A stretch of 64,000 nt of DNA from Eubacteriales bacterium (GTDB taxonomy: Bacteria > Bacillota > Clostridia > Oscillospirales > CAG-272), in contig JBGVPY010000022.1 of NCBI GenBank assembly GCA_045127235.1, positions 264-64,263 on the forward strand. The letters are read 5' to 3'. The notes beneath the pieces are model-generated. The model made no database searches. It saw only the letters and a program-made list of their open reading frames with translations, and had not been told where the DNA came from. Position numbers and translations under genes: made by a program. Positions 3,458-25,332 of the stretch are shown in pieces. Each line of letters begins with the position of its first letter. Positions within the stretch are counted from its first letter, which is position 1.

Positions 3458-4783
3458 ATGAACAAAAAAGTTTCTAAAGCTTTGCTTTTAATGTTAACGC
3501 TATTATTTGTACTTGGCATGACAAGCTGCATGTTTCTTAGTAGCTATCTAGACTCTTCTGCTTCAACAGATGATATGAAGCCTGATAAAAATGAGGGGCT
3601 TCAAATAAGCTCTGTTGATATAAATAACGATGGGGAGCTAATAATTACTTACACTAATGGTAGCGTACAGAACCTAGGATGTGTTGTCGGTAAAGATGGA
3701 AGCGTAAATGTTGACATAAACGGAAATAGCAACGATGCTTCATTTGCTGTGGCAAATGGTCTTCGCAGTGCGGTTAGCATACAATGTGTTCATAATGTTT
3801 ACAATAAATACGGCAGCTTATCCACATCTGCTTCTGCCGGCTCTGGCGTAATATATAAAATTGATAAGGAAGCAAGCAGCGCATTTATCATTACAAATTA
3901 TCATGTTGTTTATAATGAAAACGCGGTAAATAAAAATGGTATTGCTGACAGTATTAATGTTTTATTTTACGGTAGCGAATATGGTGATATGAAGGTGTCT
4001 GCCACATTCGTTGGCGGTTCAAACAATTATGATATTGCTGTTTTAAGAATTGATAATTGCGAATATTTCAAAAACAATGTATTTATTGAAGCTGATTTTG
4101 ATGACTCGGACAAAATATATGCAGGTCAAAGCGCTATTGCGATTGGTAATCCTGATGGTGCGGGAATTTCGGCATCTTACGGTATTGTAAGTGTATATTC
4201 TGAGCATATCACTTTAAATATCGGCGGTGCTGTTTCCCTTCGCGTTATGAGAATTGACACTCCTGTTAACTCCGGTAACAGCGGTGGTGGTCTATACAAT
4301 GAAAATGGTAAGCTTATTGGAATTGTAAATGCAAAAACAAGTGATACAAGTCTTGAAAACATTGGATATGCTATTCCATCCAATATTGTAAAGGCTGTGG
4401 CTGACAATATAATTGACCATTGCTACGGCACAGAGCTTGAAAGAGTTCAAAGAGCTTTACTAAACATTACCGTGGGAATTTCCGATTCAAGTGCATATTT
4501 AACAGATGATGGACATGTAATGATTAAGGAAACAGTATTTGTTTCCGAGGTAAATAGTGGTGGAATTGCTTATGGCAAGCTAAAGAAAAATGATGTTTTA
4601 CTTTCTGCTAAATTAAATGATAAGGAAATAGCTATTACAAAGCAGCACCAAATCATTGATTTTCTTTTGAATGCAAGAGTTGGAGATACACTATATGTTA
4701 CAGTTGAAAGATCAACATTAACAGGTGTTGAAAATGTTACTGTGGAAATACCTATTACCAAGGATGCAATAAACGAATATTAA
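3458..4783 (+). CDS. Trypsin-like serine protease (S1C/HtrA-like) lipoprotein with C-terminal PDZ-like region
   Basis: Lipobox LGMTSC. TNYHVV (His), NYDIAVL (Asp), NSGNSGGGL (Ser) catalytic motifs. Confidence 0.8.
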   Translation: MNKKVSKALLLMLTLLFVLGMTSCMFLSSYLDSSASTDDMKPDKNEGLQISSVDINNDGELIITYTNGSVQNLGCVVGKDGSVNVDINGNSNDASFAVANGLRSAVSIQCVHNVYNKYGSLSTSASAGSGVIYKIDKEASSAFIITNYHVVYNENAVNKNGIADSINVLFYGSEYGDMKVSATFVGGSNNYDIAVLRIDNCEYFKNNVFIEADFDDSDKIYAGQSAIAIGNPDGAGISASYGIVSVYSEHITLNIGGAVSLRVMRIDTPVNSGNSGGGLYNENGKLIGIVNAKTSDTSLENIGYAIPSNIVKAVADNIIDHCYGTELERVQRALLNITVGISDSSAYLTDDGHVMIKETVFVSEVNSGGIAYGKLKKNDVLLSAKLNDKEIAITKQHQIIDFLLNARVGDTLYVTVERSTLTGVENVTVEIPITKDAINEY

Positions 4784-4814
4784 GAAAATGCTACGCTTGA
4801 TGCGTAGCATTTTC
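4784..4814. terminator. Bidirectional intrinsic terminator
   Basis: gaaaatgctacgc / gcgtagcattttc hairpin between convergent genes. Confidence 0.6.
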
Positions 4815-5468
4815 TTATACAAGTAGATTTTCTATTTCCTTTAGAGATGACACAATATAAGTAGCTCCCGCTTTCTTTAATTCCTCATAAGTGCCGTAGC
4901 CGAAGGTTACGCCAATTGAGTCAAGGCTATATGCTTTTGCTCCGTTAATGTCAAAGCATCTGTCGCCTATCATAAGTATTTTTGTTCTATCCTTTTCCTT
5001 GATATTATCAAGGGCGTATTCAATAACATGCTCCTTGGTGTAGCGCGTTTTTTCGTCTATGGTTGCGCCGCTGATAAAGTCAAAATATTTGTGAATATCA
5101 TAATTTTGTAGGACTATGTGTGCGAAAACCTCTGGCTTTGAGGTGGCAAGGGCAATTTCATAGTCGTTATTCTTTAATGATTCAAGAAACTCCTTAATGC
5201 CATCAAAAAGCTTGCACTCGTTTATTCCCTTAGCCTTATAATATTCTCTGTAAATTTCTATCGCTTTTCTTGATTTTTCTTCATCAAAGCCATAGTATTT
5301 TGAAAACGAATCTACAAGAGGTGGTCCTATAAATTTGCAAAGTGATTTTTTGTCTTCAACGGATATACCATATTTATTTAAAGCATACTCAACGGAGTTG
5401 ATTATACCCTCGCCAGGGTCGGTTAATGTACCATCTAAATCGAATAAAATTGTGGTGTATTTATTCAT
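4815..5468 (-). CDS. HAD-superfamily hydrolase (phosphoglycolate phosphatase-like)
   Basis: FDLDGTLTD motif I, ATSK, GDRCFD motifs. Start moved to the ATG preceded by GAGGAA, 1 nt after the SulP stop. Confidence 0.75.
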   Translation of the reverse strand: MNKYTTILFDLDGTLTDPGEGIINSVEYALNKYGISVEDKKSLCKFIGPPLVDSFSKYYGFDEEKSRKAIEIYREYYKAKGINECKLFDGIKEFLESLKNNDYEIALATSKPEVFAHIVLQNYDIHKYFDFISGATIDEKTRYTKEHVIEYALDNIKEKDRTKILMIGDRCFDINGAKAYSLDSIGVTFGYGTYEELKKAGATYIVSSLKEIENLLV

Positions 5469-5469
5469 T

Positions 5470-7050
5470 TTATTCCTCATAGGTTACAGGGGTGTAATCA
5501 TCTACAATACCTGTTTTAGCCATGATTTTTTCAATTTGGCGGCTTGGTGTGTGAATAATAAGTGTTTTTCCGTTTTCTTCAAGTAGCTTTTTAGTCTCTG
5601 TTAGCATTTCAATTCCCGATGCATCAATGTAGATTACATTCTCTAAGGAAAGAAGTGTATTTGTGGTTTCAGTTGACAAAATTACCTTCTCTATTTTCTC
5701 AATATTGTTAAAGAAAATTGAGCCGTTTATATCAACTTTGCTTCTTATGTGCTGTCTGTTTAGCTCTACTGTTGTTTTTGTTGGCTTAAACTTAACGGTA
5801 ATAAGATACGAGAAAATTGAAAATACGATACCAATAATAATAGCGATTGTTAAATCAAATGCAACGGTTGCAATCATTGTGATTAAGAATTCTGCAATGG
5901 CAATATAGTATTTTTTAGAGAAAATTTCTTTTATTGATTTCCATTCGTTCATTCTAAATGCAGTTACCATTAATACGCCTGCAAGTGCGGCAAGTGGAAT
6001 TTTTGCCATTACAGGGCCTAAAAGGAACATTGAAGCAAGTAAGCCAAGAGCGTGAACGATACCTGCAATTCTTGTTTGACAGCCTGATTTGATAGCTACG
6101 CTTGTTCTTGCAATAGCTGCGGTTGCAGGAACGCCACCGAAGAATGGTATTACTATATTTCCCACACCCTGTGCGATTAATTCTTGGTTTGCATCAAATT
6201 CTTCATTTTTCATTTTTGAGGCAGATGCTCCGCAAAGTAAGCTTTCAATTATAGCAAGTGCTGCTACGCTAAATGCTGGGGATACGTATGAGAAGAAGTT
6301 TTTCCACTGAATTGAGTTAAATGAAAATCTGTCATCAAGGAATATTTTCTTTGGAATGTCGCCAACAACAGCCATATTTTCGCCACCGAAAATTGGAGTT
6401 AAGGATAAAAGTGTAGCAACAATAATACCTACTAATGATGATGGCACTACTGCATTTAGCTTTTTAGGCCAAGCTATCATAACTACAATAACGATTAAGC
6501 CAATAAATACTGAGTAAATATTAAATTGAAAGCCTTCCTTGATAAAGCCGATTATGTTTAAAAAGGAGTTTTCGTGCTTTTCTACTAGGTTTGGAAGTCC
6601 AAAGAAGTTTTGAACCTGACCGAATGCGATAATAAGAGCAATACCTGATGTAAAGCCTGTGATTACAGGGCGTGGAATTTTAGAAACGAATCTGCCTAAT
6701 TTAAATATTGCGCAAAGCAAAATTAAAATGCCGGCAAAGAATGAAACTACAAATACACCCTTAAGTCCTAATGATGAGCCTACAACACCGATAAGCACGG
6801 CTGACATAGCGCCTGTTGGACCGCTTATTTGGAATGATGCGCCTGATAATGCACCGATAATGACACCTGCGATTATTGCGGTAATAAGTCCTGCCTCAGC
6901 ACTTGCTCCGCATTGGATACCAAATGCCAATGCAAGAGGTAATGCTACCGCAGTAACGGTAAGACCTGCAAGTATGTCCTTTAAAAACTTTTTTGAGTTG
7001 TAGCCGCTAAACTCTCTTTTGAGCATAGATGCATATTTTTTAATAAACAT
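5470..7050 (-). CDS. SulP-family anion transporter with C-terminal STAS-like domain
   Basis: 526 aa, multi-TM N-terminal body and a soluble C-terminal ~100 aa, typical SulP layout. Confidence 0.85.
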   Translation of the reverse strand: MFIKKYASMLKREFSGYNSKKFLKDILAGLTVTAVALPLALAFGIQCGASAEAGLITAIIAGVIIGALSGASFQISGPTGAMSAVLIGVVGSSLGLKGVFVVSFFAGILILLCAIFKLGRFVSKIPRPVITGFTSGIALIIAFGQVQNFFGLPNLVEKHENSFLNIIGFIKEGFQFNIYSVFIGLIVIVVMIAWPKKLNAVVPSSLVGIIVATLLSLTPIFGGENMAVVGDIPKKIFLDDRFSFNSIQWKNFFSYVSPAFSVAALAIIESLLCGASASKMKNEEFDANQELIAQGVGNIVIPFFGGVPATAAIARTSVAIKSGCQTRIAGIVHALGLLASMFLLGPVMAKIPLAALAGVLMVTAFRMNEWKSIKEIFSKKYYIAIAEFLITMIATVAFDLTIAIIIGIVFSIFSYLITVKFKPTKTTVELNRQHIRSKVDINGSIFFNNIEKIEKVILSTETTNTLLSLENVIYIDASGIEMLTETKKLLEENGKTLIIHTPSRQIEKIMAKTGIVDDYTPVTYEE

Positions 7051-7125
7051 TTTTATCCCTCTTATGTAAATTTAATTTTATGGTATTTATTTTAGCACTA
7101 AATATTAAAATGTCAATATAGTATA

Positions 7126-7156
7126 AAGAAAAAATTGCTCCGAAGAGCAATTTTTA
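7126..7156 (-). terminator. Intrinsic terminator
   Basis: aaattgctc-cgaa-gagcaattt hairpin with a T-run on the minus strand. Confidence 0.55.
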
Positions 7157-7726
7157 TTTAACAAATCTTTTTTTGGCGATTTCTATGATGCGTAAAATAG
7201 ATGGGCATAGAATAATATTTAAAACTAATTCTATTACGAAATTAATTCCACCAAGTCCAACTAATAACATTCCCATACCTACACCAGCTTCGTTTGCTAA
7301 TACCATAAGATCATCAATGATAAAGATGAAGCAGCCAAGGAAGAAAACACCGGTATTAACAATCGGTGCTATTATTGCAGAGCAAAATACTGCTCCCGTT
7401 GGATGTTTTTTTGATAACAGCTTATATGCAAGTGCAGATAAAAAGCCTGCCAAAAGTCCCTTTAATAGCATTGTTGTAATTCCGCCTGCCGGGCTGTATT
7501 GAACAAACAACGTTGCCTCCGGTATTGCTACTATTGCCGGAATTACCGTTAACCATGCTCCAACTATTGGACCGCATAATGCACCGCCGATTACCACCAC
7601 AGGTAACACAAGAGTTATTGTAACTTGGCTAAAAATAGGAATTTTAATAAAGCTCAATACAGCCGCCAATGCAGTTAAAATTCCCACCAAAGCTATTTTG
7701 CGAATCATGTCCTTATTATTTTTCAT
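7154..7726 (-). CDS. Small polytopic membrane protein, ECF-transporter S-component-like
   Basis: 190 aa with about 5-6 TM segments, good RBS AAGGAGAAG. Substrate not assignable. Confidence 0.45.
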   Translation of the reverse strand: MKNNKDMIRKIALVGILTALAAVLSFIKIPIFSQVTITLVLPVVVIGGALCGPIVGAWLTVIPAIVAIPEATLFVQYSPAGGITTMLLKGLLAGFLSALAYKLLSKKHPTGAVFCSAIIAPIVNTGVFFLGCFIFIIDDLMVLANEAGVGMGMLLVGLGGINFVIELVLNIILCPSILRIIEIAKKRFVK

Positions 7727-7736
7727 AGTCTTCTCC

Positions 7737-8696
7737 TTAACTATCTAAGTGGTTAAATATTTCTTTCCAAACAGCTTCGTCCTGCTCAGTCATTTTATCC
7801 CAATCAAATGACGAAACAAAAAGCGATTTTTCTTCCTTTGTTGCTTTTTTATTACGGGCAAGCTTTGCTCTTTTTTTACCGAATTCTTGAAGATATTTCA
7901 CTGCATTTTCTGTGTAATTTGGATTATGCCCCTTATTTTGAGCAAGCAAGAATTTAATGTTTTCATTATCTTCAAGTCCGTTTTTAAGTATATCATAATG
8001 TACCTTTTTGCACATTTGATCATTTTCAGAATAAATTAAAAGTGCCTTTACATTTGAGTTACTTAGTGATTCTAATGAATTGAATTCAACAAATTTTGGA
8101 TTACACTGTCTTTCAAATTCTACAATGGTTTTACGATATCCCTTTAATATTCCCGGGAAGAACGTGCCTATCATTTTATCAACCGATACAAAGCCGCACA
8201 TTGCTACAATATACGAAATGTCGGGATGTAATGCGGTAATATTAAGTGTGGAAAACGCCCCCCAGCTATGTCCCATTACTGAGATGTCATAAGATGAGTA
8301 TATTTCGTGGGATTTAAGCATGGTAATACAATCGTTAAGGTCGCATAGGGATTGAGCAAGACCGTTTGGAGTTTCGCCCTCGGATTCCATACATCCTGTA
8401 TGGTCGTAGGAGAAAACCTTGTAGCCGTGTCTGCATAAAAGCTCAATTTCCTTCATATATGCTCTGTGTCCACCGCCAAAGCCGTGGTCAAAAACTACTA
8501 ATCTGTTTGGAATTGGATTTTCGTACTGATAAAAGTAGCCTTTAAGTGTATGATTCTTAGATGATTTAAAGGAGTGCTCTGTTTTTTGAAGTCCTTTAAA
8601 ATCCTCGTTTGAAAAATAGAATACAGTTTCAGTATCATCGCATCTATTATGCATCATACTCTTATATAGGTTTAAAATTTGCTTTTCAAAAATCAT
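7737..8696 (-). CDS. Alpha/beta hydrolase
   Basis: GHSWG nucleophile elbow. Track start is GTG; the ATG at 8696 follows AAAGGAGAAG. Confidence 0.7.
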   Translation of the reverse strand: MIFEKQILNLYKSMMHNRCDDTETVFYFSNEDFKGLQKTEHSFKSSKNHTLKGYFYQYENPIPNRLVVFDHGFGGGHRAYMKEIELLCRHGYKVFSYDHTGCMESEGETPNGLAQSLCDLNDCITMLKSHEIYSSYDISVMGHSWGAFSTLNITALHPDISYIVAMCGFVSVDKMIGTFFPGILKGYRKTIVEFERQCNPKFVEFNSLESLSNSNVKALLIYSENDQMCKKVHYDILKNGLEDNENIKFLLAQNKGHNPNYTENAVKYLQEFGKKRAKLARNKKATKEEKSLFVSSFDWDKMTEQDEAVWKEIFNHLDS

Positions 8697-19774: not shown

Positions 19775-19812
19775 GAAAAAAGAAGAATTTGCAATTTTGC
19801 AAATTCTTCTTT
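19775..19812 (-). terminator. Intrinsic terminator of the three-gene operon
   Basis: agaagaatttgcaa / ttgcaaattcttct perfect 14-nt arms with a T-run on the minus strand, directly after the 19816 stop. Confidence 0.7.
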
Positions 19813-19815
19813 TTA

Positions 19816-20898
19816 TTAGTTTTCTTCTGTTTCGTTTGTGTGATTATAGGTTTTGAAAATTTCCTTACACATATCGGCGTGGGCTTCGCAATCAAAAAAA
19901 TGTGCGATTTCCTCTTGCTGATCCTTTGGGAAAATGCGGTAGCGTTCTTGCGCTAAGGCATATTCTCTAAAGTACTCATACCATGAGTTATCAAGAAGCG
20001 ATTTACTTCTTTCGTTAAGCTCGGAAAGGAGTTTTGATGATTCGCTTTCGTTTGCTAAGCGAATTGATGGTCCATCAACTACTGTTGGAATAAATTCAAT
20101 ATCAAGAGATTTGTCTATTACGAGCTTGACCATAAGTCCCGTGTTCCACATATAGCCGCCGTCTTCTCCATTTTCAAACTTTTTAGAAACGAAGTGGAAG
20201 TTGCCTTGCCCGTAGAGAATGTGACCGTTTTGGAATTTCTCGTAGCAGCCGATGCAGTGGCTATGCTGACATAAAACAACGTCTGCGCCGTGCTTTACCA
20301 TGGCTCGGCATAGTTTTAAAAGCCTTGGGGATGGGTATCTGCAATCCTCTTTACCGCCGTGATAGATAACTATAACATAATCATTATTTTTCTTTGCTTC
20401 TAATATATCGTCGTTTGTGTCGTATGGGTCGTATTCTCTTGCACCCTCACGATTATCAAGAGCGTAGGTGTATTCATGCTCGCAAACTGCAATAACTGCT
20501 ATTTTGATTTTGCCGTCTGTTATAATTAAGTCCTTGCGGGCATCAACGTTGTTTTTGCCGTAGCCGGTATAGTTTATACCGTACTTTTTTAGTTCGTTTA
20601 TTGTGTCGCTAACGCCCAATTTACCAAAGTCAAAAATATGGTTGTTTGACAATATACAATCGGTAACGCCTGCATTTTTAAGAGTTTTTACTGTATTTAT
20701 GGGCGCGTTTAGGTTTGGACCGATTTTCTTTATTGGAGTGTTTTTGTCAGTAACAGCGCATTCTAAATTAACTATTACACGGTCAGATTTTTTAAATTCA
20801 TTTATTACGTCGTTAAAAAGCTTATTATGTTGACAGGTGTCAAATAGATTCCAACAATCCTCTTTTACGGATATGTCGCCGCCTATAATTAGTTTCAT
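19816..20898 (-). CDS. CapA/PGA_cap-type calcineurin-like metallophosphoesterase, cytoplasmic (no signal peptide or TM)
   Basis: Motifs in CapA order: IGGD, NLE, SNNHIFDFG, YHGGKE, QHSHC, GNFHF. RBS AAGGAG. Confidence 0.7.
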   Translation of the reverse strand: MKLIIGGDISVKEDCWNLFDTCQHNKLFNDVINEFKKSDRVIVNLECAVTDKNTPIKKIGPNLNAPINTVKTLKNAGVTDCILSNNHIFDFGKLGVSDTINELKKYGINYTGYGKNNVDARKDLIITDGKIKIAVIAVCEHEYTYALDNREGAREYDPYDTNDDILEAKKNNDYVIVIYHGGKEDCRYPSPRLLKLCRAMVKHGADVVLCQHSHCIGCYEKFQNGHILYGQGNFHFVSKKFENGEDGGYMWNTGLMVKLVIDKSLDIEFIPTVVDGPSIRLANESESSKLLSELNERSKSLLDNSWYEYFREYALAQERYRIFPKDQQEEIAHFFDCEAHADMCKEIFKTYNHTNETEEN

Positions 20899-20907
20899 AT
20901 TTGCTCC

Positions 20908-22101
20908 TTATAAAATAATTTCTTCCTTATCATTCGGTACATATACGTTATAATTCTTGAATACGTCCTTAAATTTTTCGGGTGTTTCTGTGTGCATTGG
21001 TATTATAATATCAGGCTTTGCTAAGTCAACAACGGATATTAAGTCTTTTCCAGATACATGCCCGCTTGTATGTAAATACTCCCATTTGTCAGTTAAATTT
21101 AAAAAATCCGGGATTGTGCTATTTGTTTTAGTGCGGTATCCGTCCCATAAGGAATATAGAATTATGCCTTGACTTTTGTCAAACTTTTTTATTATTTTTC
21201 TAAATTCACTGTTATCTCTAACGGTCATTAAAAAGCCTTTATCACGAAGCTTTTCGTATATGTTATCTCCGTATACAACTTTTTTGATGTTTTTATAGAA
21301 CGATGAATAGCTTTGATAATGCGTTTCAAATAAATCTAAAAGTTCATTTTGATATTTATCACAAACAAAATATTTGCCTTTAGGAACAGATTTTGATAAT
21401 GCACATATTCTTTCAAGGTAAGTTGTTGAACAAAATACATATACGTATTTATACTGTTTTAAATATTCTTTTACCTTTTGTTGAAGTTCAAATTCGGAAA
21501 TCAATGCACTCTCAGGTCGGGAAAGATTTGTTCCTTCTGTGATTAGCGCGTCAATTTTTCCTTTTTCGGCTAAGATTTTATTTATGATTTTCGGTATTGC
21601 TTTACCTCTAAATCCATGCAAACGAAAATCGCCTGTATATAAAACTCGTTTTCCCTCTGCTTCGATTAAAAACATATAGCTATCGCACGCGGAATGGTCA
21701 ATTGAATAGGGTGTGACACTAATATCTCCAAACAAAAGAGTTTGACCGCCCATAAATGTGTTTAACTTTTCTATTTTGCTACATAGCGCTTGATTTACAT
21801 TTATTGCTCTTTTAGCGCTTTTTAGCATTATTTCCTTTGCAAGAGCGCCTGAGTACATAGGAATATTGTCTAAAATTTGTGTCATTTGTCCTATGTGGTC
21901 TCCGTGGTAGTGAGTAAAAAGAACGCCATTACAAAATCCATTGTTGTTGGTTATTCCGTCAATACTTAAAGAGGCTTGAACATAGCTTGGTTCAAGGGAA
22001 AGCTCATCGCCCATGTCAATTAAAACACGTGAACTTTCGGTTGATATTTCCGTGGAAATACCGCCTATTTGATGTGTACCTCTATGTATAACAATTTTCA
22101 T
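20908..22101 (-). CDS. Metallo-beta-lactamase fold nuclease of the beta-CASP type (RNase J/CPSF/SNM1-like core)
   Basis: H64-Y-H-G-D-H69, SIDHSACD, YTGDFR, ITEGT, HTSGH, IPMHTE in canonical order. The start overlaps the upstream stop (TGATG). Confidence 0.7.
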   Translation of the reverse strand: MKIVIHRGTHQIGGISTEISTESSRVLIDMGDELSLEPSYVQASLSIDGITNNNGFCNGVLFTHYHGDHIGQMTQILDNIPMYSGALAKEIMLKSAKRAINVNQALCSKIEKLNTFMGGQTLLFGDISVTPYSIDHSACDSYMFLIEAEGKRVLYTGDFRLHGFRGKAIPKIINKILAEKGKIDALITEGTNLSRPESALISEFELQQKVKEYLKQYKYVYVFCSTTYLERICALSKSVPKGKYFVCDKYQNELLDLFETHYQSYSSFYKNIKKVVYGDNIYEKLRDKGFLMTVRDNSEFRKIIKKFDKSQGIILYSLWDGYRTKTNSTIPDFLNLTDKWEYLHTSGHVSGKDLISVVDLAKPDIIIPMHTETPEKFKDVFKNYNVYVPNDKEEIIL

Positions 22102-23051
22102 CAGTTTATTTTTTTCATTCTGTCAGAATATAGGCAATAACCCATATTTGATGAATTGGCAATGATAATAGGAAAACTATAATCTTGATTTTTGCTATCA
22201 TTGATAATATCTTCTAATACTTGACTATCAGGGTCATGATTGGCAAAAATAAATATTACCTCGGGATAGTTTGCGGTTATTTCAAATTTTTTTAATTGAT
22301 GAGATTGGATGCCGTCTACTAGCCCTAATTCACATTTTTGCTTAAATACCTCGGTCATATCTTTGCAAAAGAATTTCAGGTTTTCTTCATTGGCTAAAAA
22401 TCTATTAAAATCCTCTAAATGCTTATTAACTCCTGCATTATTTTTTAAAGCTCCGTCACCGTATTTCACTTCTATTAATGCTAAGGAAAGCGCATCTGAT
22501 TTTTTGCGCGAAGCCCCATCAGATAACCATTTTAACGCTACCATATCAAATCTGGCATTATTAGATTTATGCTCGTCGTTGCTTTCGCCTACGTTTTCAT
22601 ATTCTTGCTCAATTTCGTCGTCTATATCAAGCTTGTTTGCATACTCTATATCTATGATATAGTAATCGGTGCTTCTTGAAATTTTTCCGATATTATTATT
22701 TTCTCTGACTATAATTTGTTGAAATTCTCTTTCTAACTTAGGATGTTTTTTAAACCATAAATCCATAGCGTACTTATAAAGCGGTATATTTTCTATCGCT
22801 TCAACTACTGTCATAGGGGATTTTAGTTGTCTTTTTTGTCCTCTACAATAATTTTCGTTAAAGTAAATTTCACATTTATCTTTTTTATAAAAAACTTTAA
22901 AAAGGCTTCCGCCACGGTAGTAGATATTTGCAAAGCTACCTCGTAATTCAAGATCTAAGGTGTCATCTGCTTTTACAATATCTAACAAAGGTTTTAATTC
23001 GCCTTCTTTCAATGCGTTGTATAAGGTATCATTTAATTTTCTTTCGTTCAT
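22101..23051 (-). CDS. Hypothetical protein with PD-(D/E)xK nuclease-like signature
   Basis: 316 aa. RFD169MVAL ... LALIE194VK196YG, plus upstream acidic residues (EREFQQIIVRE). RBS AAGGAG. Visibly AT-rich. Confidence 0.5.
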   Translation of the reverse strand: MNERKLNDTLYNALKEGELKPLLDIVKADDTLDLELRGSFANIYYRGGSLFKVFYKKDKCEIYFNENYCRGQKRQLKSPMTVVEAIENIPLYKYAMDLWFKKHPKLEREFQQIIVRENNNIGKISRSTDYYIIDIEYANKLDIDDEIEQEYENVGESNDEHKSNNARFDMVALKWLSDGASRKKSDALSLALIEVKYGDGALKNNAGVNKHLEDFNRFLANEENLKFFCKDMTEVFKQKCELGLVDGIQSHQLKKFEITANYPEVIFIFANHDPDSQVLEDIINDSKNQDYSFPIIIANSSNMGYCLYSDRMKKIN

Positions 23052-23082
23052 ATTTTTGCTCCTTATTTACTTTTGCATTTAA

Positions 23083-23111
23083 ATTATACGTATGGTAAGT
23101 CTTTTCGTCAA
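23083..23111 (-). promoter_or_regulatory. Promoter TTGACG-17-TATAAT of the three-gene operon
   Basis: Reverse complement of 23106-23111 is TTGACG and of 23083-23088 is TATAAT, with an exact 17-nt spacer, about 30 nt upstream of the start codon. Confidence 0.65.
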
Positions 23112-23138
23112 ATATATTTTGTGCTAAACCGTAGACTT

Positions 23139-24011
23139 TTAAAGATTAACTAATACTATTGCCATTATACCTAAGATAAGGACGATTACATCTCTTTTAT
23201 CCATTTTTTCCTTGTACATAATGATGCTTAAAATAAGAGATATTAAAATTGAACCTACATTTAAAAGTGGGAATAAAACTGCACTGTCAAGGACACCTGC
23301 AAGGTAGGTATTCATTATATTACATAGAGAGAATATAACACCTACGATAAGAGCAGAGGACATTGATTTTCTTTTTAGAGATGGTTCGCCCTTCTTTAAA
23401 GCCAAGGATAGAATTACCGACAAAGTAAAGGCAATCAAGAATGATAAGAGAATAAATGCGTTTAGCTGATTTGCATACTTGGATTGTTGGTGAATTTTTT
23501 GCATAATACCAAGTCCGCCCGATGCAAGTAATGCTATTATTAGTGGAATGACAAAAAATTTTGAGGTCTGTTTATTTTCATGTTTTTTGGGACTTGTGCC
23601 TGAAATGATAAGTATAGGCAACAAAATAATTATTCCTAAATATCCAAAAATTGTAATTGTTTCATTCCAAAACAGTGTGCCAGATAACGTTGGCACAACA
23701 AATCCAAAGGAATATATTGTTGCACAAACTGCTGTTTTTCCTTGACTTAATGCTAAGGTGTAGCACCAAAGAGCGGCTACAAGCATAATGCCGTAGAAAA
23801 TCGAGCAAATTACGGTAAATTTTGATATGCCGTTAAAGCTTATTAAATTTGCTATGGCTAAAACTACACTTCCTGCGCCGAAAATTGATGCTTGAAGTAT
23901 AAAGAATTCTCGATTTTTAATATGATGTACGGAAAATCCTTTAATTAGCACATTTTTTGTTGCGCCAAAAAGGATGCTGCAAATTAAAATCAATGCTGTT
24001 ACTACTGTCAT
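23139..24011 (-). CDS. Integral membrane protein, ~10 TM, DMT/EamA-like
   Basis: 290 aa, two similar 5-TM halves. The start is 1 nt after the upstream stop. Confidence 0.5.
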   Translation of the reverse strand: MTVVTALILICSILFGATKNVLIKGFSVHHIKNREFFILQASIFGAGSVVLAIANLISFNGISKFTVICSIFYGIMLVAALWCYTLALSQGKTAVCATIYSFGFVVPTLSGTLFWNETITIFGYLGIIILLPILIISGTSPKKHENKQTSKFFVIPLIIALLASGGLGIMQKIHQQSKYANQLNAFILLSFLIAFTLSVILSLALKKGEPSLKRKSMSSALIVGVIFSLCNIMNTYLAGVLDSAVLFPLLNVGSILISLILSIIMYKEKMDKRDVIVLILGIMAIVLVNL

Positions 24012-24012
24012 T

Positions 24013-24708
24013 TTATTCTTGCTCCGGAATAATTAGCGTGTATGCGCCTTTACGAAGGGTTGCTACTAAATCTTGAGGGTTTTTAATGCGCTTTTCCGTC
24101 ATAATACCGCCGTATGCAACTCTATCTACTGAGTGGGCATCTGCGCTTGAGGTTTTTATAAGGTGTGGGTTTTCGTTTGCAAAATCTACTGCCTTTTGGT
24201 TCATTTCCTGTGTGCTATTTCCTCTGTTGTAAACCTCAACGCCGTCTATAAATTCAAGCGGTAAATGTCCCGGATTGGGGATGTAAAACGCCTCTCTAAA
24301 CGGGTGAGGTTGGATAAGTAATACTCCGTTTTGGCGTAAAATTTCCACCTTTCTTTCAGGGGTACAGTCTCTAAGCTCGGGGTTAGCATAAAGAATTTCA
24401 GGTGTTACGCCGTAGCAAAGAATTTCAAGACCCGGAATAAGCACCTCTTCAACGCTGAAAATGATGTCAAGGTCGTATTTTTTTGCTTCTTCTAAGCATG
24501 CAAGATAGTCCTTTTCATATGCGGATACAAAATTGTTCCAGGATAAGCTTCTGTCAACGCCTGAGTTTCCGTGGTAAAAGTGGTTTGTTAAAACTGTGCC
24601 TTGGTATCCTTTTTCGTACAGTGCTTCACATAGCTCGGCAGGGGACATTCTGCCACAGGCTGAGCAAGGGGATGTATGAATATGCATTTGATATTTATAG
24701 CTTGCCAT
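24013..24708 (-). CDS. PHP-domain metal-dependent phosphoesterase
   Basis: MHIHTSPCS N-terminal His motif, then HPFR and DAHS motifs. 231 aa. Confidence 0.7.
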   Translation of the reverse strand: MASYKYQMHIHTSPCSACGRMSPAELCEALYEKGYQGTVLTNHFYHGNSGVDRSLSWNNFVSAYEKDYLACLEEAKKYDLDIIFSVEEVLIPGLEILCYGVTPEILYANPELRDCTPERKVEILRQNGVLLIQPHPFREAFYIPNPGHLPLEFIDGVEVYNRGNSTQEMNQKAVDFANENPHLIKTSSADAHSVDRVAYGGIMTEKRIKNPQDLVATLRKGAYTLIIPEQE

Positions 24709-24978: not shown

Positions 24979-25332
24979 ATGGATATTTCGGTGTTTGAAA
25001 AGCTACAACATAGCTTTATTATGGTGCGATTTTATCATACAACCGGTCACTACAATAAAGACGAATTAGATAAAGAAATTAAAAGTTTAAAACAGATAAA
25101 AGAACAATTTTCTTCGAATAATGATTACTCAATTCTAATATACTGCATAGATACATTATTTAATTGTCTAAATGAAGGAAATAATGAAAAAATATTTGAT
25201 TTTGCTGATGCTATACACAATATTCCTGAAATTTTTATTGATAAAAGAAGCTCAAAATCATTCAAATTAGATGTTAATATATTCAGAAACAAATATGGAA
25301 AAGAATATTTTTCCGATTTCTTTAATTTTTAA
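24979..25332 (+). CDS. Hypothetical protein (117 aa, AT-rich orphan)
   Basis: Strong RBS AAGGGGGA. No recognisable motif. Confidence 0.5.
   Translation: MDISVFEKLQHSFIMVRFYHTTGHYNKDELDKEIKSLKQIKEQFSSNNDYSILIYCIDTLFNCLNEGNNEKIFDFADAIHNIPEIFIDKRSSKSFKLDVNIFRNKYGKEYFSDFFNF

Follow-up and report, generated by a model that had tools for sequence, protein, structure and literature searches.

A horizontally acquired gene pair coding for a probably Shedu-like protein and a beta-CASP nuclease in a clostridial genome, a candidate two-nuclease module

A survey of the Shedu (SduA) proteins described them as proteins in which a linker joins a variable N-terminal sensor domain to a DUF4263 nuclease domain, with EndoMS as the closest structural relative, and predicted that the N-terminal domain of B. 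cereus SduA forms a beta-beta-beta-beta-alpha unit. A two-component variant, KELShedu, exists. Defence proteins with a metallo-beta-lactamase (MBL) fold are also known, linked to proteases, Hachiman helicases, reverse transcriptases or SMC-like proteins. We have analyzed a locus with likenesses to both groups in a stretch of 64,000 nucleotides (nt), called here the window, from a Eubacteriales bacterium of the Clostridia (assembly GCA_045127235.1, contig JBGVPY010000022.1). A previous inspection of the letters alone, the sequence-only reading, had picked out three adjacent genes of the minus strand as an autonomous operon and the best candidate for an undescribed system. These were gene 1 (of no nameable family), gene 2 (an MBL nuclease of the beta-CASP group) and gene 3 (a CapA/PGA_cap metallophosphoesterase). 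Our comparison of loci indicates that the real unit is the pair made of genes 1 and 2, which is conserved, horizontally spread and unnamed. The coordinates of the features are collected in Table 1.

The evidence for an insertion comes from two relatives (L111 and L112) in which the site is empty. Their gene order is mutS-mutL-tgt-deacetylase-PHP-EamA-CapA, the CapA gene starts 13 nt past the end of EamA, and gene 1 and the MBL gene are both missing from this otherwise syntenic site. By blastn, positions 24749-23139 of the window correspond to 5370-6987 of L111, ending at the EamA stop codon, and positions 20915-19830 correspond to 6982-8069, beginning just ahead of the CapA ribosome-binding site (RBS). 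The homology breaks exactly at 23139 and 20915, and therefore 20916-23138 is an insertion. We read it, from these alignments, as a horizontally acquired cassette that arrived with its own promoter between the resident EamA and CapA genes. The string PHP-EamA-CapA existed before and was broken by the cassette, as is apparent from the synteny with L047, L048, L109 and L111. The relatives that bear the cassette (L047 and L048, at 92% and 84% identity) have the chromosomal context of the window, and the whole stretch from the DUF6259 gene to mutS is syntenic among relatives. The operon had been placed in an accessory stretch downstream of tRNA-Pro, but there is no such island, an origin at the tRNA-Pro being ruled out by the synteny of the wider region. 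A mobile block of five genes (PHP-EamA-gene 1-MBL-CapA) was rejected as well, the chromosomal context of L048 being the same apart from small indels. What does hold of the accessory nature applies to gene 1 and the MBL gene, as an insertion facing an empty site. Neither the list of open reading frames (ORFs) nor the blastn comparison with the empty site gave any integrase, transposase or repeat at the flanks of the insertion in the window.

The EamA-CapA junction is a variable spot, because L109 has two unrelated genes there (an arabinofuranosidase and a FAD oxidoreductase, 3592-6859), L048 has an additional FAD oxidoreductase after CapA (6542-7834) and L111 and L112 are empty. A near-identical string, ATAAGGAGCAAA(A/T)ATG, precedes the start of gene 1 (23052-23072) and that of CapA (20899-20915). 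The copies of ATAAGGAGCAAA (12 nt) are the two inner edges of the insertion, and in L047 and L048 they agree less exactly. They could be a remnant of the insertion (a duplication of the CapA RBS) or merely a similar RBS context. A target-site duplication was considered and not used, given the less exact match in L047 and L048 and the possibly similar RBS context.

The packing of the three ORFs is as had been described. The stop codon of gene 1 and the start of gene 2 overlap by 1 nt (TGATG), an arrangement by which gene 2 is probably translationally coupled to gene 1, and 9 nt separate genes 2 and 3, the RBS of gene 3 overlapping the stop codon of gene 2 (TAAGGAG). The promoter proposed for the unit is also present. 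A scan of 5.5 kb gave four sites with 11 of the 12 consensus positions, and 31 sites in total compared to 21.7 +/- 4.7 in shuffled sequences, so that the match alone is undistinctive. The candidate is backed by its place in the 87-nt spacer between EamA and gene 1, the sole intergenic gap, and by its conservation in two relatives, since L047 (TTGACC) and L048 (TTGATA) retain both hexamers and the 17-nt spacing. The terminator scan detected none between EamA and gene 1. The hairpin with its T run exists too, but it belongs to the resident CapA gene. It lies between the convergent CapA and DUF6259 genes, a layout kept in L047 and L109, and is best seen as a resident bidirectional terminator that would also end any transcript of the cassette. 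The idea of a self-contained transcription unit was thus not borne out, the breakpoints of the insertion excluding both CapA and the hairpin, and the "autonomous three-gene operon" is a chimera of an inserted pair with a resident CapA and its terminator. Genes 1 and 2 had also been judged, by eye, to be clearly more AT-rich than mutS or tgt. They are more AT-rich than the average, but only modestly: their GC contents were 0.315 (z -1.7) and 0.332 (z -1.2), with 0.389 for gene 3 and 0.372 +/- 0.034 for the 49 ORFs of the window. The cassette as a whole has 0.324 versus 0.367 for the window.

Gene 3 was correctly recognized. It matched Pfam PGA_cap (PF09587) with 5.1e-54, its residues 2-236 covering positions 1-253 of the 255 of the profile, and it has the metallophosphoesterase-type motifs. 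Its N-terminus, MKLIIGGD, enters the first metal-binding motif at once, with no hydrophobic segment or signal peptide. No capB or capC (pgsB/pgsC) genes were found as neighbours, its flanks being EamA/PHP (or the cassette) and DUF6259. We found 2,095 homologues below 1e-20, many of them 65-80% identical, that make up a dense family in Clostridia, the CapA of L111 and L112 being 78% identical to the one in the window. The closest solved relative was the peptide epimerase MslH, at only 5e-5. A CapA homologue stands beside gene 1 only in L047 and L048 and in none of the 46 gene 1 loci outside these two close relatives, and in the gene 1 relative at 61% identity the pair is followed by a different gene of 169 amino acids (aa). 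The trio is therefore not conserved as a neighbourhood beyond close relatives, and gene 3, which had been taken for a component of the system, is by this comparison a bystander and not part of the conserved module. Probably it is co-transcribed by read-through from the cassette.

The association of gene 1 with the MBL gene was found, instead, to recur across unrelated genomes. Both genes occur in 32 non-redundant loci, on the same strand in 31 and in the order gene 1 then MBL in 29. The distance between them is within ~1.3 kb in 28 of the 32 and within ~120 nt in 11, and their divergences from the copies in the window are correlated (r = 0.78 over the 32 loci, uncorrected for phylogeny). The pair was found in Oscillospiraceae, Lachnospiraceae, Negativicutes, Brachyspira, Mucispirillum, Planctomycetaceae, Bacteroidales, Desulfovibrionales and Nitrospinales, at 45-55% identity.

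We have also carried out the reverse test, by scanning metagenomes with an alignment of the MBL protein, and obtained ~21 informative loci of the MBL subfamily. About 14-15 of the 21 have an adjoining PD-(D/E)xK-like partner. The canonical gene 1 adjoins the MBL in four or five loci and a remote homologue of it (296-357 aa) in L067, L073, L074 and L075. The remote homologues aligned to gene 1 with an hhalign probability of 95.4% (E 1.8e-8) over up to 243 columns, in which the YYRGGSLF hairpin, E107-E109, D134-x-E136, R-F-D169 and E194-x-K196 were matched. In five or six loci the partner belongs to a second unnamed family (family B) with a RecB/Cas4-like signature, E ... Q-x-P ... G-x-I-D ... 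E-L-K ... E-x-x-x-Y, and in one locus it is a Pfam PDDEXK_4 protein. Family B had no match in Pfam or PADLOC, and hhalign of gene 1 against it and against the PDDEXK_4 partner was non-significant. Compared with PADLOC, the remote and alternative partners gave only weak matches of the nuclease core. In Phascolarctobacterium family B sits between gene 1 and the MBL gene. From these ~21 loci it follows that the MBL subfamily is habitually found beside a PD-(D/E)xK-like protein whose family is exchangeable. The exchange goes also in the other direction. The canonical gene 1 occurs with two MBL subtypes that are mutually only ~30% identical, and the 61% relative (L051) has an MBL of a different subtype, only 35% identical to that of the window, so the subtypes are swapped even among fairly close relatives of gene 1.

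Several accessory genes accompany the pair. In ~11 loci gene 1 and the MBL gene enclose a gene for a protein of ~200 aa with a helix-turn-helix (HTH) of the HTH_11/PafC-like type. The MBL gene is followed by a WYL+WCX regulator in four loci and by a DEDD exonuclease of the RNase_T family (333 aa) in ~8. Calcineurin-like metallophosphoesterases appear directly after gene 1 in L023 and L025, after the MBL gene in L059 and ~1 kb after it in L066. They are of three unrelated types and unrelated to CapA. The architecture of two nucleases plus a phosphoesterase that had drawn attention in the window recurs, then, with other Metallophos genes, but not with this CapA. A shared N-terminal domain of the HTH regulator and the DEDD exonuclease was examined and left unused (E 0.0014, 18% probability). 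Downstream of the MBL and family B pair of L060 (4252-6841) there are two genes of 571 and 289 aa, the product of the former resembling, by eye, a DNA-binding ATPase regulator of the Schlafen/AlbA_2 type.

Gene 1 had no match in Pfam, NCBIfam, PADLOC, PHROGs or the sequences of the PDB. Its AlphaFold2 model (pLDDT 82.7, pTM 0.84) starts with two helices followed by a beta-beta-beta-beta-alpha arrangement (residues ~8-69, the beta unit at ~32-69 with the YYRGGSLF hairpin) and continues with a helical linker (helices at 82-119). The C-terminal core is alpha-beta-beta-beta-alpha-beta, formed by helix 106-119, strands 130-134, 170-174 and 188-197, helix 208-241 and strand 258-270. In this predicted model D169 lies where strand 2 begins, and E194-x-K196 falls within strand 3. 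With an acidic residue in helix 1, the Asp in strand 2 and the (D/E)xK in strand 3, motif and topology are those of the PD-(D/E)xK enzymes as far as the predicted model goes. The only residues invariant across canonical, fusion and remote members were R4, R37, Y44, Y68, E107, D134, E136, R167, D169, E194 and K196, and these, to judge from the alignments, have the pattern typical of metal-dependent nuclease sites. The remote homologue of L067 gave Pfam matches to SduA_C (7.9e-4, 20.1 bits for a cut-off of 27), YhcG_C (0.01) and DUF234 (0.022). These families all belong to the PD-(D/E)xK group, and the matches cover the region aligned to E107-K196 of gene 1. In Foldseek, Shedu (8ti9_B), EndoMS/NucS, MUS81, NotI and FokI came up only among the weak matches. 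In the BFVD database there was nothing significant for gene 1, the best viral matches being gp54 of phage G (7e-3) and a DUF1828 protein, and among PDB sequences no meaningful match was obtained with gene 1, with the profiles of its family and superfamily or with the remote members. Gene 1 itself did not match SduA_C even at E<=1, nor the PADLOC Shedu models. The D...ExK residues that the sequence-only reading had pointed out are where it put them and invariant or nearly so, although the structural matches are non-significant and those of the profiles sub-threshold. By alignment and model gene 1 is a putative PD-(D/E)xK enzyme, probably Shedu-like, and the best evidence for it is transitive, through the homologue of L067.

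The family is large. A word-indexed search gave 568 homologues, and a profile search gave 1,775 clusters at 50% identity (544 below 1e-30). The identities drop from 84% directly to 61%. None of the members looked up carried a family name in public sources. In a scan of one genome per species we found it in Oscillospiraceae, Lachnospiraceae, Dialister, Phascolarctobacterium, Selenomonas, Brachyspira, Mucispirillum, Planctomycetaceae, Bacteroidales, Fundidesulfovibrio, Nitrospinales and Erysipelotrichaceae, that is, in at least seven phyla, with identities typically of 45-55% between phyla. By tblastn the 50,697 phage and 72,556 plasmid records contained no match, and IMG/VR contained only two loci.

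Some peculiarities of individual gene 1 loci are worth recording. There are paralogues in tandem in L042 (7788-9800), a divergent pair in L037 (4970-8960) and another case in L039 (8001-9881). Longer fusions occur among P0215, P0253, P0211, P0208, P0230 and P0223, with ~130-230 additional aa at the N- or C-terminus. A Pfam scan gave no match in these extra regions, and the C-termini of P0215 and P0253 have a Cys-rich, zinc-ribbon-like tail. In Negativicutes (L001, L026 and L028, 5800-7950; L030, L031 and L033, 6700-7900) uncharacterised genes recur upstream of gene 1. They code for a protein of 231-242 aa (starting MNLK.AFQ.QK), a protein of 184 aa and a C-terminal DnaB fragment of 86-95 aa, and may be remnants of integrated elements. 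In Oscillibacter, Zongyangia and Pseudoflavonifractor (L013, L020 and L044, 6250-7950) a divergent XRE-family HTH gene of 280 aa and a small gene of 73-98 aa stand just upstream of gene 1, a layout that resembles, by analogy, a cI/Cro-type switch. In L051 (7890-7990) a strong terminator hairpin of the upstream gene is followed by an extended -10 promoter (TGCTATGGTATAAT) before gene 1.

Regarding gene 2, the MBL and beta-CASP motifs are where the sequence-only reading had placed them. H64, H66, D68, H69, H136 and D158 (MBL motifs 2-4) were invariant in 12 diverse homologues, and so were E189 of motif A, H348 of motif B (HTSGH) and H370 of motif C (PMHTE). Pfam Lactamase_B_2 and Lactamase_B were matched above their cut-offs, as was RMMBL (23.3 bits, cut-off 21.6). 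The closest solved relative over the full length was the hypothetical protein EF2904 (2az4, 2.7e-12). The lack of an RNase J C-terminal domain was also confirmed. The comparison with NCBIfam and Pfam detected neither this domain nor a KH domain, the alignment to RNase J covers only residues ~7-224, the protein has 397 aa versus ~550, and the scores were far under the cut-offs (60.9 versus 820 for NF047419 and 55.6 versus 400 for TIGR00649; 28.6 versus 580 for aCPSF1). Partial matches were found to the PADLOC models RTasMBL (1.8e-5) and LmuA (9.7e-5) over the N-terminal 80-90 residues, and to phrog_392 (2.5e-14), also at the N-terminus. Judged by its motifs, gene 2 is a catalytically intact beta-CASP enzyme and not an RNase J. 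Under the rule of Callebaut, a His in motif C marks the RNA-acting branch (CPSF-73, RNase J) and a Val the DNA branch of SNM1 and Artemis. A Val-to-His change at this position left the selectivity of SNM1A unaltered, and for this reason the rule is a weak predictor. The motif would put gene 2 in the RNA-type CPSF/RNase J branch, with DNA or RNA as its candidate substrate.

Our proposal, to which we give a probability of roughly 0.45, is that the pair is a two-nuclease module of innate defence against phages or other mobile DNA. Gene 1 would be a Shedu-like enzyme in which a small N-terminal domain senses nucleic acids and controls a C-terminal PD-(D/E)xK endonuclease with E107, D134, E136, D169, E194 and K196 as its putative active site. 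It would make the first cut in invading or aberrant nucleic acid, and the MBL partner, probably complexed with gene 1, would continue the degradation from the end so created, either as a 5'-to-3' exonuclease or as an endonuclease. The optional third enzymes may trim with the opposite polarity or clean up the ends. HTH or WYL regulators, where present, would hold the module off until a signal arrives, which in the characterised WYL proteins is single-stranded DNA (ssDNA). A role in defence or conflict is favoured because the cassette is an insertion with presence and absence in close relatives, because its spread across phyla is patchy and at high identity, and because partners and accessory genes swap. 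It is also favoured because the pair is accompanied by regulators of the WYL/PafC-HTH types, which also control CBASS and BREX, and because its neighbourhoods include restriction-modification systems (types I, II, III and IIG), McrBC, TIR-NLR, PDC-S01, an SLFN-type helicase and HicAB.

Several observations weigh against this proposal. The defence-related genes amount to ~8-10 of 140 non-redundant neighbours, and many gene 1 loci lie amid housekeeping genes such as gyrA, rpsB, prfA, dnaE and holA. The defence-island signal is modest to weak. PADLOC-DB v2.0.0 gave zero matches for genes 1 and 3 and only the weak partial ones to RTasMBL and LmuA for gene 2, which at the same time agrees with the sequence-only reading in that no system of this catalogue corresponds to gene 1 or to the pair. 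The absence of gene 1 from the phage and plasmid records is unusual for a mobile defence gene. About one third of the gene 1 loci, for example in Selenomonas, have no MBL gene, and the cassette of the window has no regulator gene. Foldseek comparisons with the PDB, for the full model of gene 1 and for a model of its C-terminal domain (pLDDT 71), gave nothing below E 0.1, the best value being 0.19, and every profile match in the gene 1 family falls below its family threshold. Finally, it is pure inference that the two proteins form a complex and that they act in this order. Only tentatively, then, do we entertain the fuller version of the proposal, a widespread and undescribed immune system of two nucleases. 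In it a highly diverged Shedu-like sensor-endonuclease would hand its cut substrate to an exonuclease of the CPSF/RNase J type, the MBL would pair with several unrelated PD-(D/E)xK families and the third slot, filled by a DEDD exonuclease or by metallophosphoesterases, would be interchangeable.

The same genes could serve in the processing or repair of damaged DNA. Gene 1 would incise damaged or structured DNA like XPF/MUS81 or NucS/EndoMS, the beta-CASP enzyme would resect past the lesion like SNM1A, WYL or HTH regulators similar to PafBC and DriD would sense ssDNA, and DEDD exonucleases or metallophosphoesterases would clean the ends. The WYL+WCX and PafC-type HTH genes found within the operons fit here, since PafBC and DriD run DNA-damage responses through ssDNA, but the same WYL family regulates CBASS and BREX defence. 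Some loci stand beside replication or repair genes (dnaE, holA and comEC in L004 and L024, mutS/mutL near the cassette in the window), the weak structural similarities include EndoMS/NucS and MUS81, and the pair is absent from phage and plasmid records. On the other hand, a patchy distribution driven by horizontal transfer, with partners and third genes rapidly swapped, is seen more typically in conflict systems than in repair pathways, motif C has a His where the SNM1/Artemis repair branch has Val, and no ligase, helicase or polymerase partner was seen among the operons examined. We consider repair a serious rival, although less likely than defence. Lower still we would place an RNA-directed function, in which the RNase J/CPSF-like MBL and gene 1 degrade RNA and act as an effector, of the abortive-infection or toxin-like kind, or as an accessory pathway of RNA turnover. 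The RMMBL domain of Pfam is one of RNA specificity, there are partial matches to RNase J and aCPSF1, H370 of motif C and the Glu of motif A make the RNA-acting pattern under the Callebaut rule, and the RNase_T-family accessory gene could act on RNA. Nevertheless, the scores are far under the RNase J and aCPSF1 cut-offs with no KH or C-terminal RNA-binding module, the SNM1A result weakens the rule, the PD-(D/E)xK-like partners belong mostly to DNA cutters and WYL regulators answer to ssDNA.

A selfish function, as an addiction or toxin-antitoxin-like module or in the replication or recombination of an integrative element not recognised as such, seems to us quite improbable. The cassette is small and autonomous with its own promoter, in L013, L020 and L044 there are XRE/Cro-like gene pairs upstream, in Negativicutes the DnaB fragment and recurrent uncharacterised genes are found there, a MobA/MobL gene was seen near one locus and the MBL N-terminus matches phrog_392. 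But no integrase, transposase or repeat flanks the insertion in the window, gene 1 is absent from the phage and plasmid collections, and the catalytic sites of both proteins are complete, which is not so in a typical antitoxin. The least credible option, in our estimate, is the genuine three-component system in which a cytoplasmic CapA-like metallophosphoesterase works with the two nucleases. The tight packing with probable co-transcription and the layout kept in the relatives at 92% and 84% identity are in its favour, and the unrelated calcineurin-like enzymes of L023, L025, L059 and L066 make a phosphoesterase helper a recurrent theme. Yet CapA comes right after EamA in the empty site and belongs to a dense family whose conservation in Clostridia does not depend on the pair. 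It adjoins 0 of the 46 other gene 1 loci, where already at 61% identity a different gene takes its place. Its GC is unlike that of the cassette, and its nearest solved relative is a peptide epimerase and no nuclease.

Two further observations concern the neighbourhood. Between the PHP and deacetylase genes of the window there is an ORF of 117 aa on the plus strand (24979-25332), where the 84% relative (L048, 209-1460) has SHOCT-domain and HTH_3 genes instead, and the interval looks like another small variable patch. Downstream of DUF6259 in L109 (11277-13875) there are adjoining genes for an NYN-domain protein of 500 aa and an RNase III-like protein of 368 aa, which may form an RNA-targeting module.

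Table 1. Position of the features of the window and of the loci of the second partner family (family B).
Feature	Sequence	Position	Strand	Basis or remark
Gene 1	window	22101-23051	-	ORF of 316 aa
Gene 2 (beta-CASP MBL)	window	20908-22101	-	ORF of 397 aa
Gene 3 (CapA/PGA_cap)	window	19816-20898	-	ORF of 360 aa
Inserted cassette, 2,223 bp (promoter, gene 1 and MBL gene)	window	20916-23138	-	blastn versus empty site
Sigma-70-like promoter candidate TTGACG-17-TATAAT	window	23083-23111	-	11/12 consensus positions; inside inserted DNA
Palindromic hairpin with flanking A and T runs	window	19777-19814	unstranded	terminator scan: 17 pairs, loop 4
EamA-family transporter gene, resident	window	23139-24011	-	ORF, Pfam, synteny
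PHP-domain protein gene, resident	window	24013-24708	-	ORF, Pfam, synteny
Second partner family	L026	9231-11998		
Second partner family	L028	9231-10268		
Second partner family	L060	1977-2660		
Second partner family	L061			
Second partner family	L062	5067-5990		
Second partner family	L064	7222-7929		
Second partner family	L070	2-673		
Second partner family	L056	5354-6013		
Second partner family	L074	2902-4083		

Candidate defence systems are now reported in large numbers, and this locus carries a caution, namely that one promoter, one terminator and tight packing do not make three genes a system. The comparison of empty and filled sites defines an exact fragment of 2.2 kb that is a good experimental target. 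If the pair is indeed a module of defence or nucleic-acid surveillance, the immune nucleases gain an unnamed family as large as ~1,800 clusters at 50% identity, whose members come mostly from gut and anaerobic bacteria. The orphan beta-CASP subfamily of EF2904/2az4, a structural-genomics entry of 2005, would receive its first functional context, and the combination of a constant MBL exonuclease with exchangeable PD-(D/E)xK partners would be a modular rule with which further systems could be sought. Were the immune-system reading true, gene 1 would represent a new deep branch of the Shedu-type nucleases and the pair a new effector logic, the coupled endo- and exonucleolytic destruction of DNA and possibly also of RNA.

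How does the locus compare with what has been described? CapA/PGA_cap proteins act in the poly-gamma-glutamate capsule or, like MslH, as lasso-peptide epimerases. Gene 3 shares with them a full-length match, but it differs from the capsule proteins in having no membrane anchor, signal peptide or capB and capC neighbours. Like RNase J, CPSF-73/aCPSF1 and EF2904, gene 2 has all the MBL motifs together with the Glu (A), His (B) and His (C) of the two-metal branch. It scores far under the cut-offs of the RNase J and aCPSF1 families, lacks their C-terminal or KH domains and is no housekeeping gene but an accessory one, tied to a nuclease-like partner. In crosslink repair, endonucleases of the XPF/MUS81 type act together with the SNM1A exonuclease, and the bacterial Lhr-MPE-Exo-ligase repair cluster combines a beta-CASP exonuclease with a metallophosphoesterase. 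We mention both as analogies only. The logic of the former, a PD-(D/E)xK-type incision followed by a beta-CASP 5' exonuclease, would be the same, but homology of gene 1 to XPF/MUS81 is not demonstrable (Foldseek probability <=0.09), gene 2 has His instead of the Val of SNM1 in motif C, and the operon of the window has neither the Lhr helicase nor the ligase of the latter.

Among defence systems, hydrolases of the MBL fold are likewise the effectors in HamMAB/AVAST-associated MBL, in the protease-activated MBL effectors, in DRT-MBL and in Lamassu LmuA-MBL. Their typical partners are absent here, and the matches of gene 2 to them cover only the generic MBL core. We found no defence pair of an MBL with a PD-(D/E)xK protein in the literature searched, where the MBL systems described are linked to proteases or helicases. 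Shedu offers the closest parallel to gene 1, the model of which likewise has a small N-terminal domain (beta-beta-beta-beta-alpha), a helical linker and a C-terminal domain with a PD-(D/E)xK-like signature. The best Pfam match of its remote homologue is SduA_C, over the catalytic region, and its weak Foldseek matches include 8ti9_B and EndoMS. Against this, gene 1 fails the SduA_C and PADLOC Shedu models, its remote member staying at 20.1 bits with the cut-off at 27, and it has no sequence match to the solved Shedu structures. Moreover, Shedu is a single-gene system, whereas gene 1 is habitually paired with a beta-CASP MBL, of which the Shedu survey makes no mention. Defence modules based on nucleases are already known, and the new part here would be the coupling of a probably Shedu-like, unnamed family to a beta-CASP nuclease.

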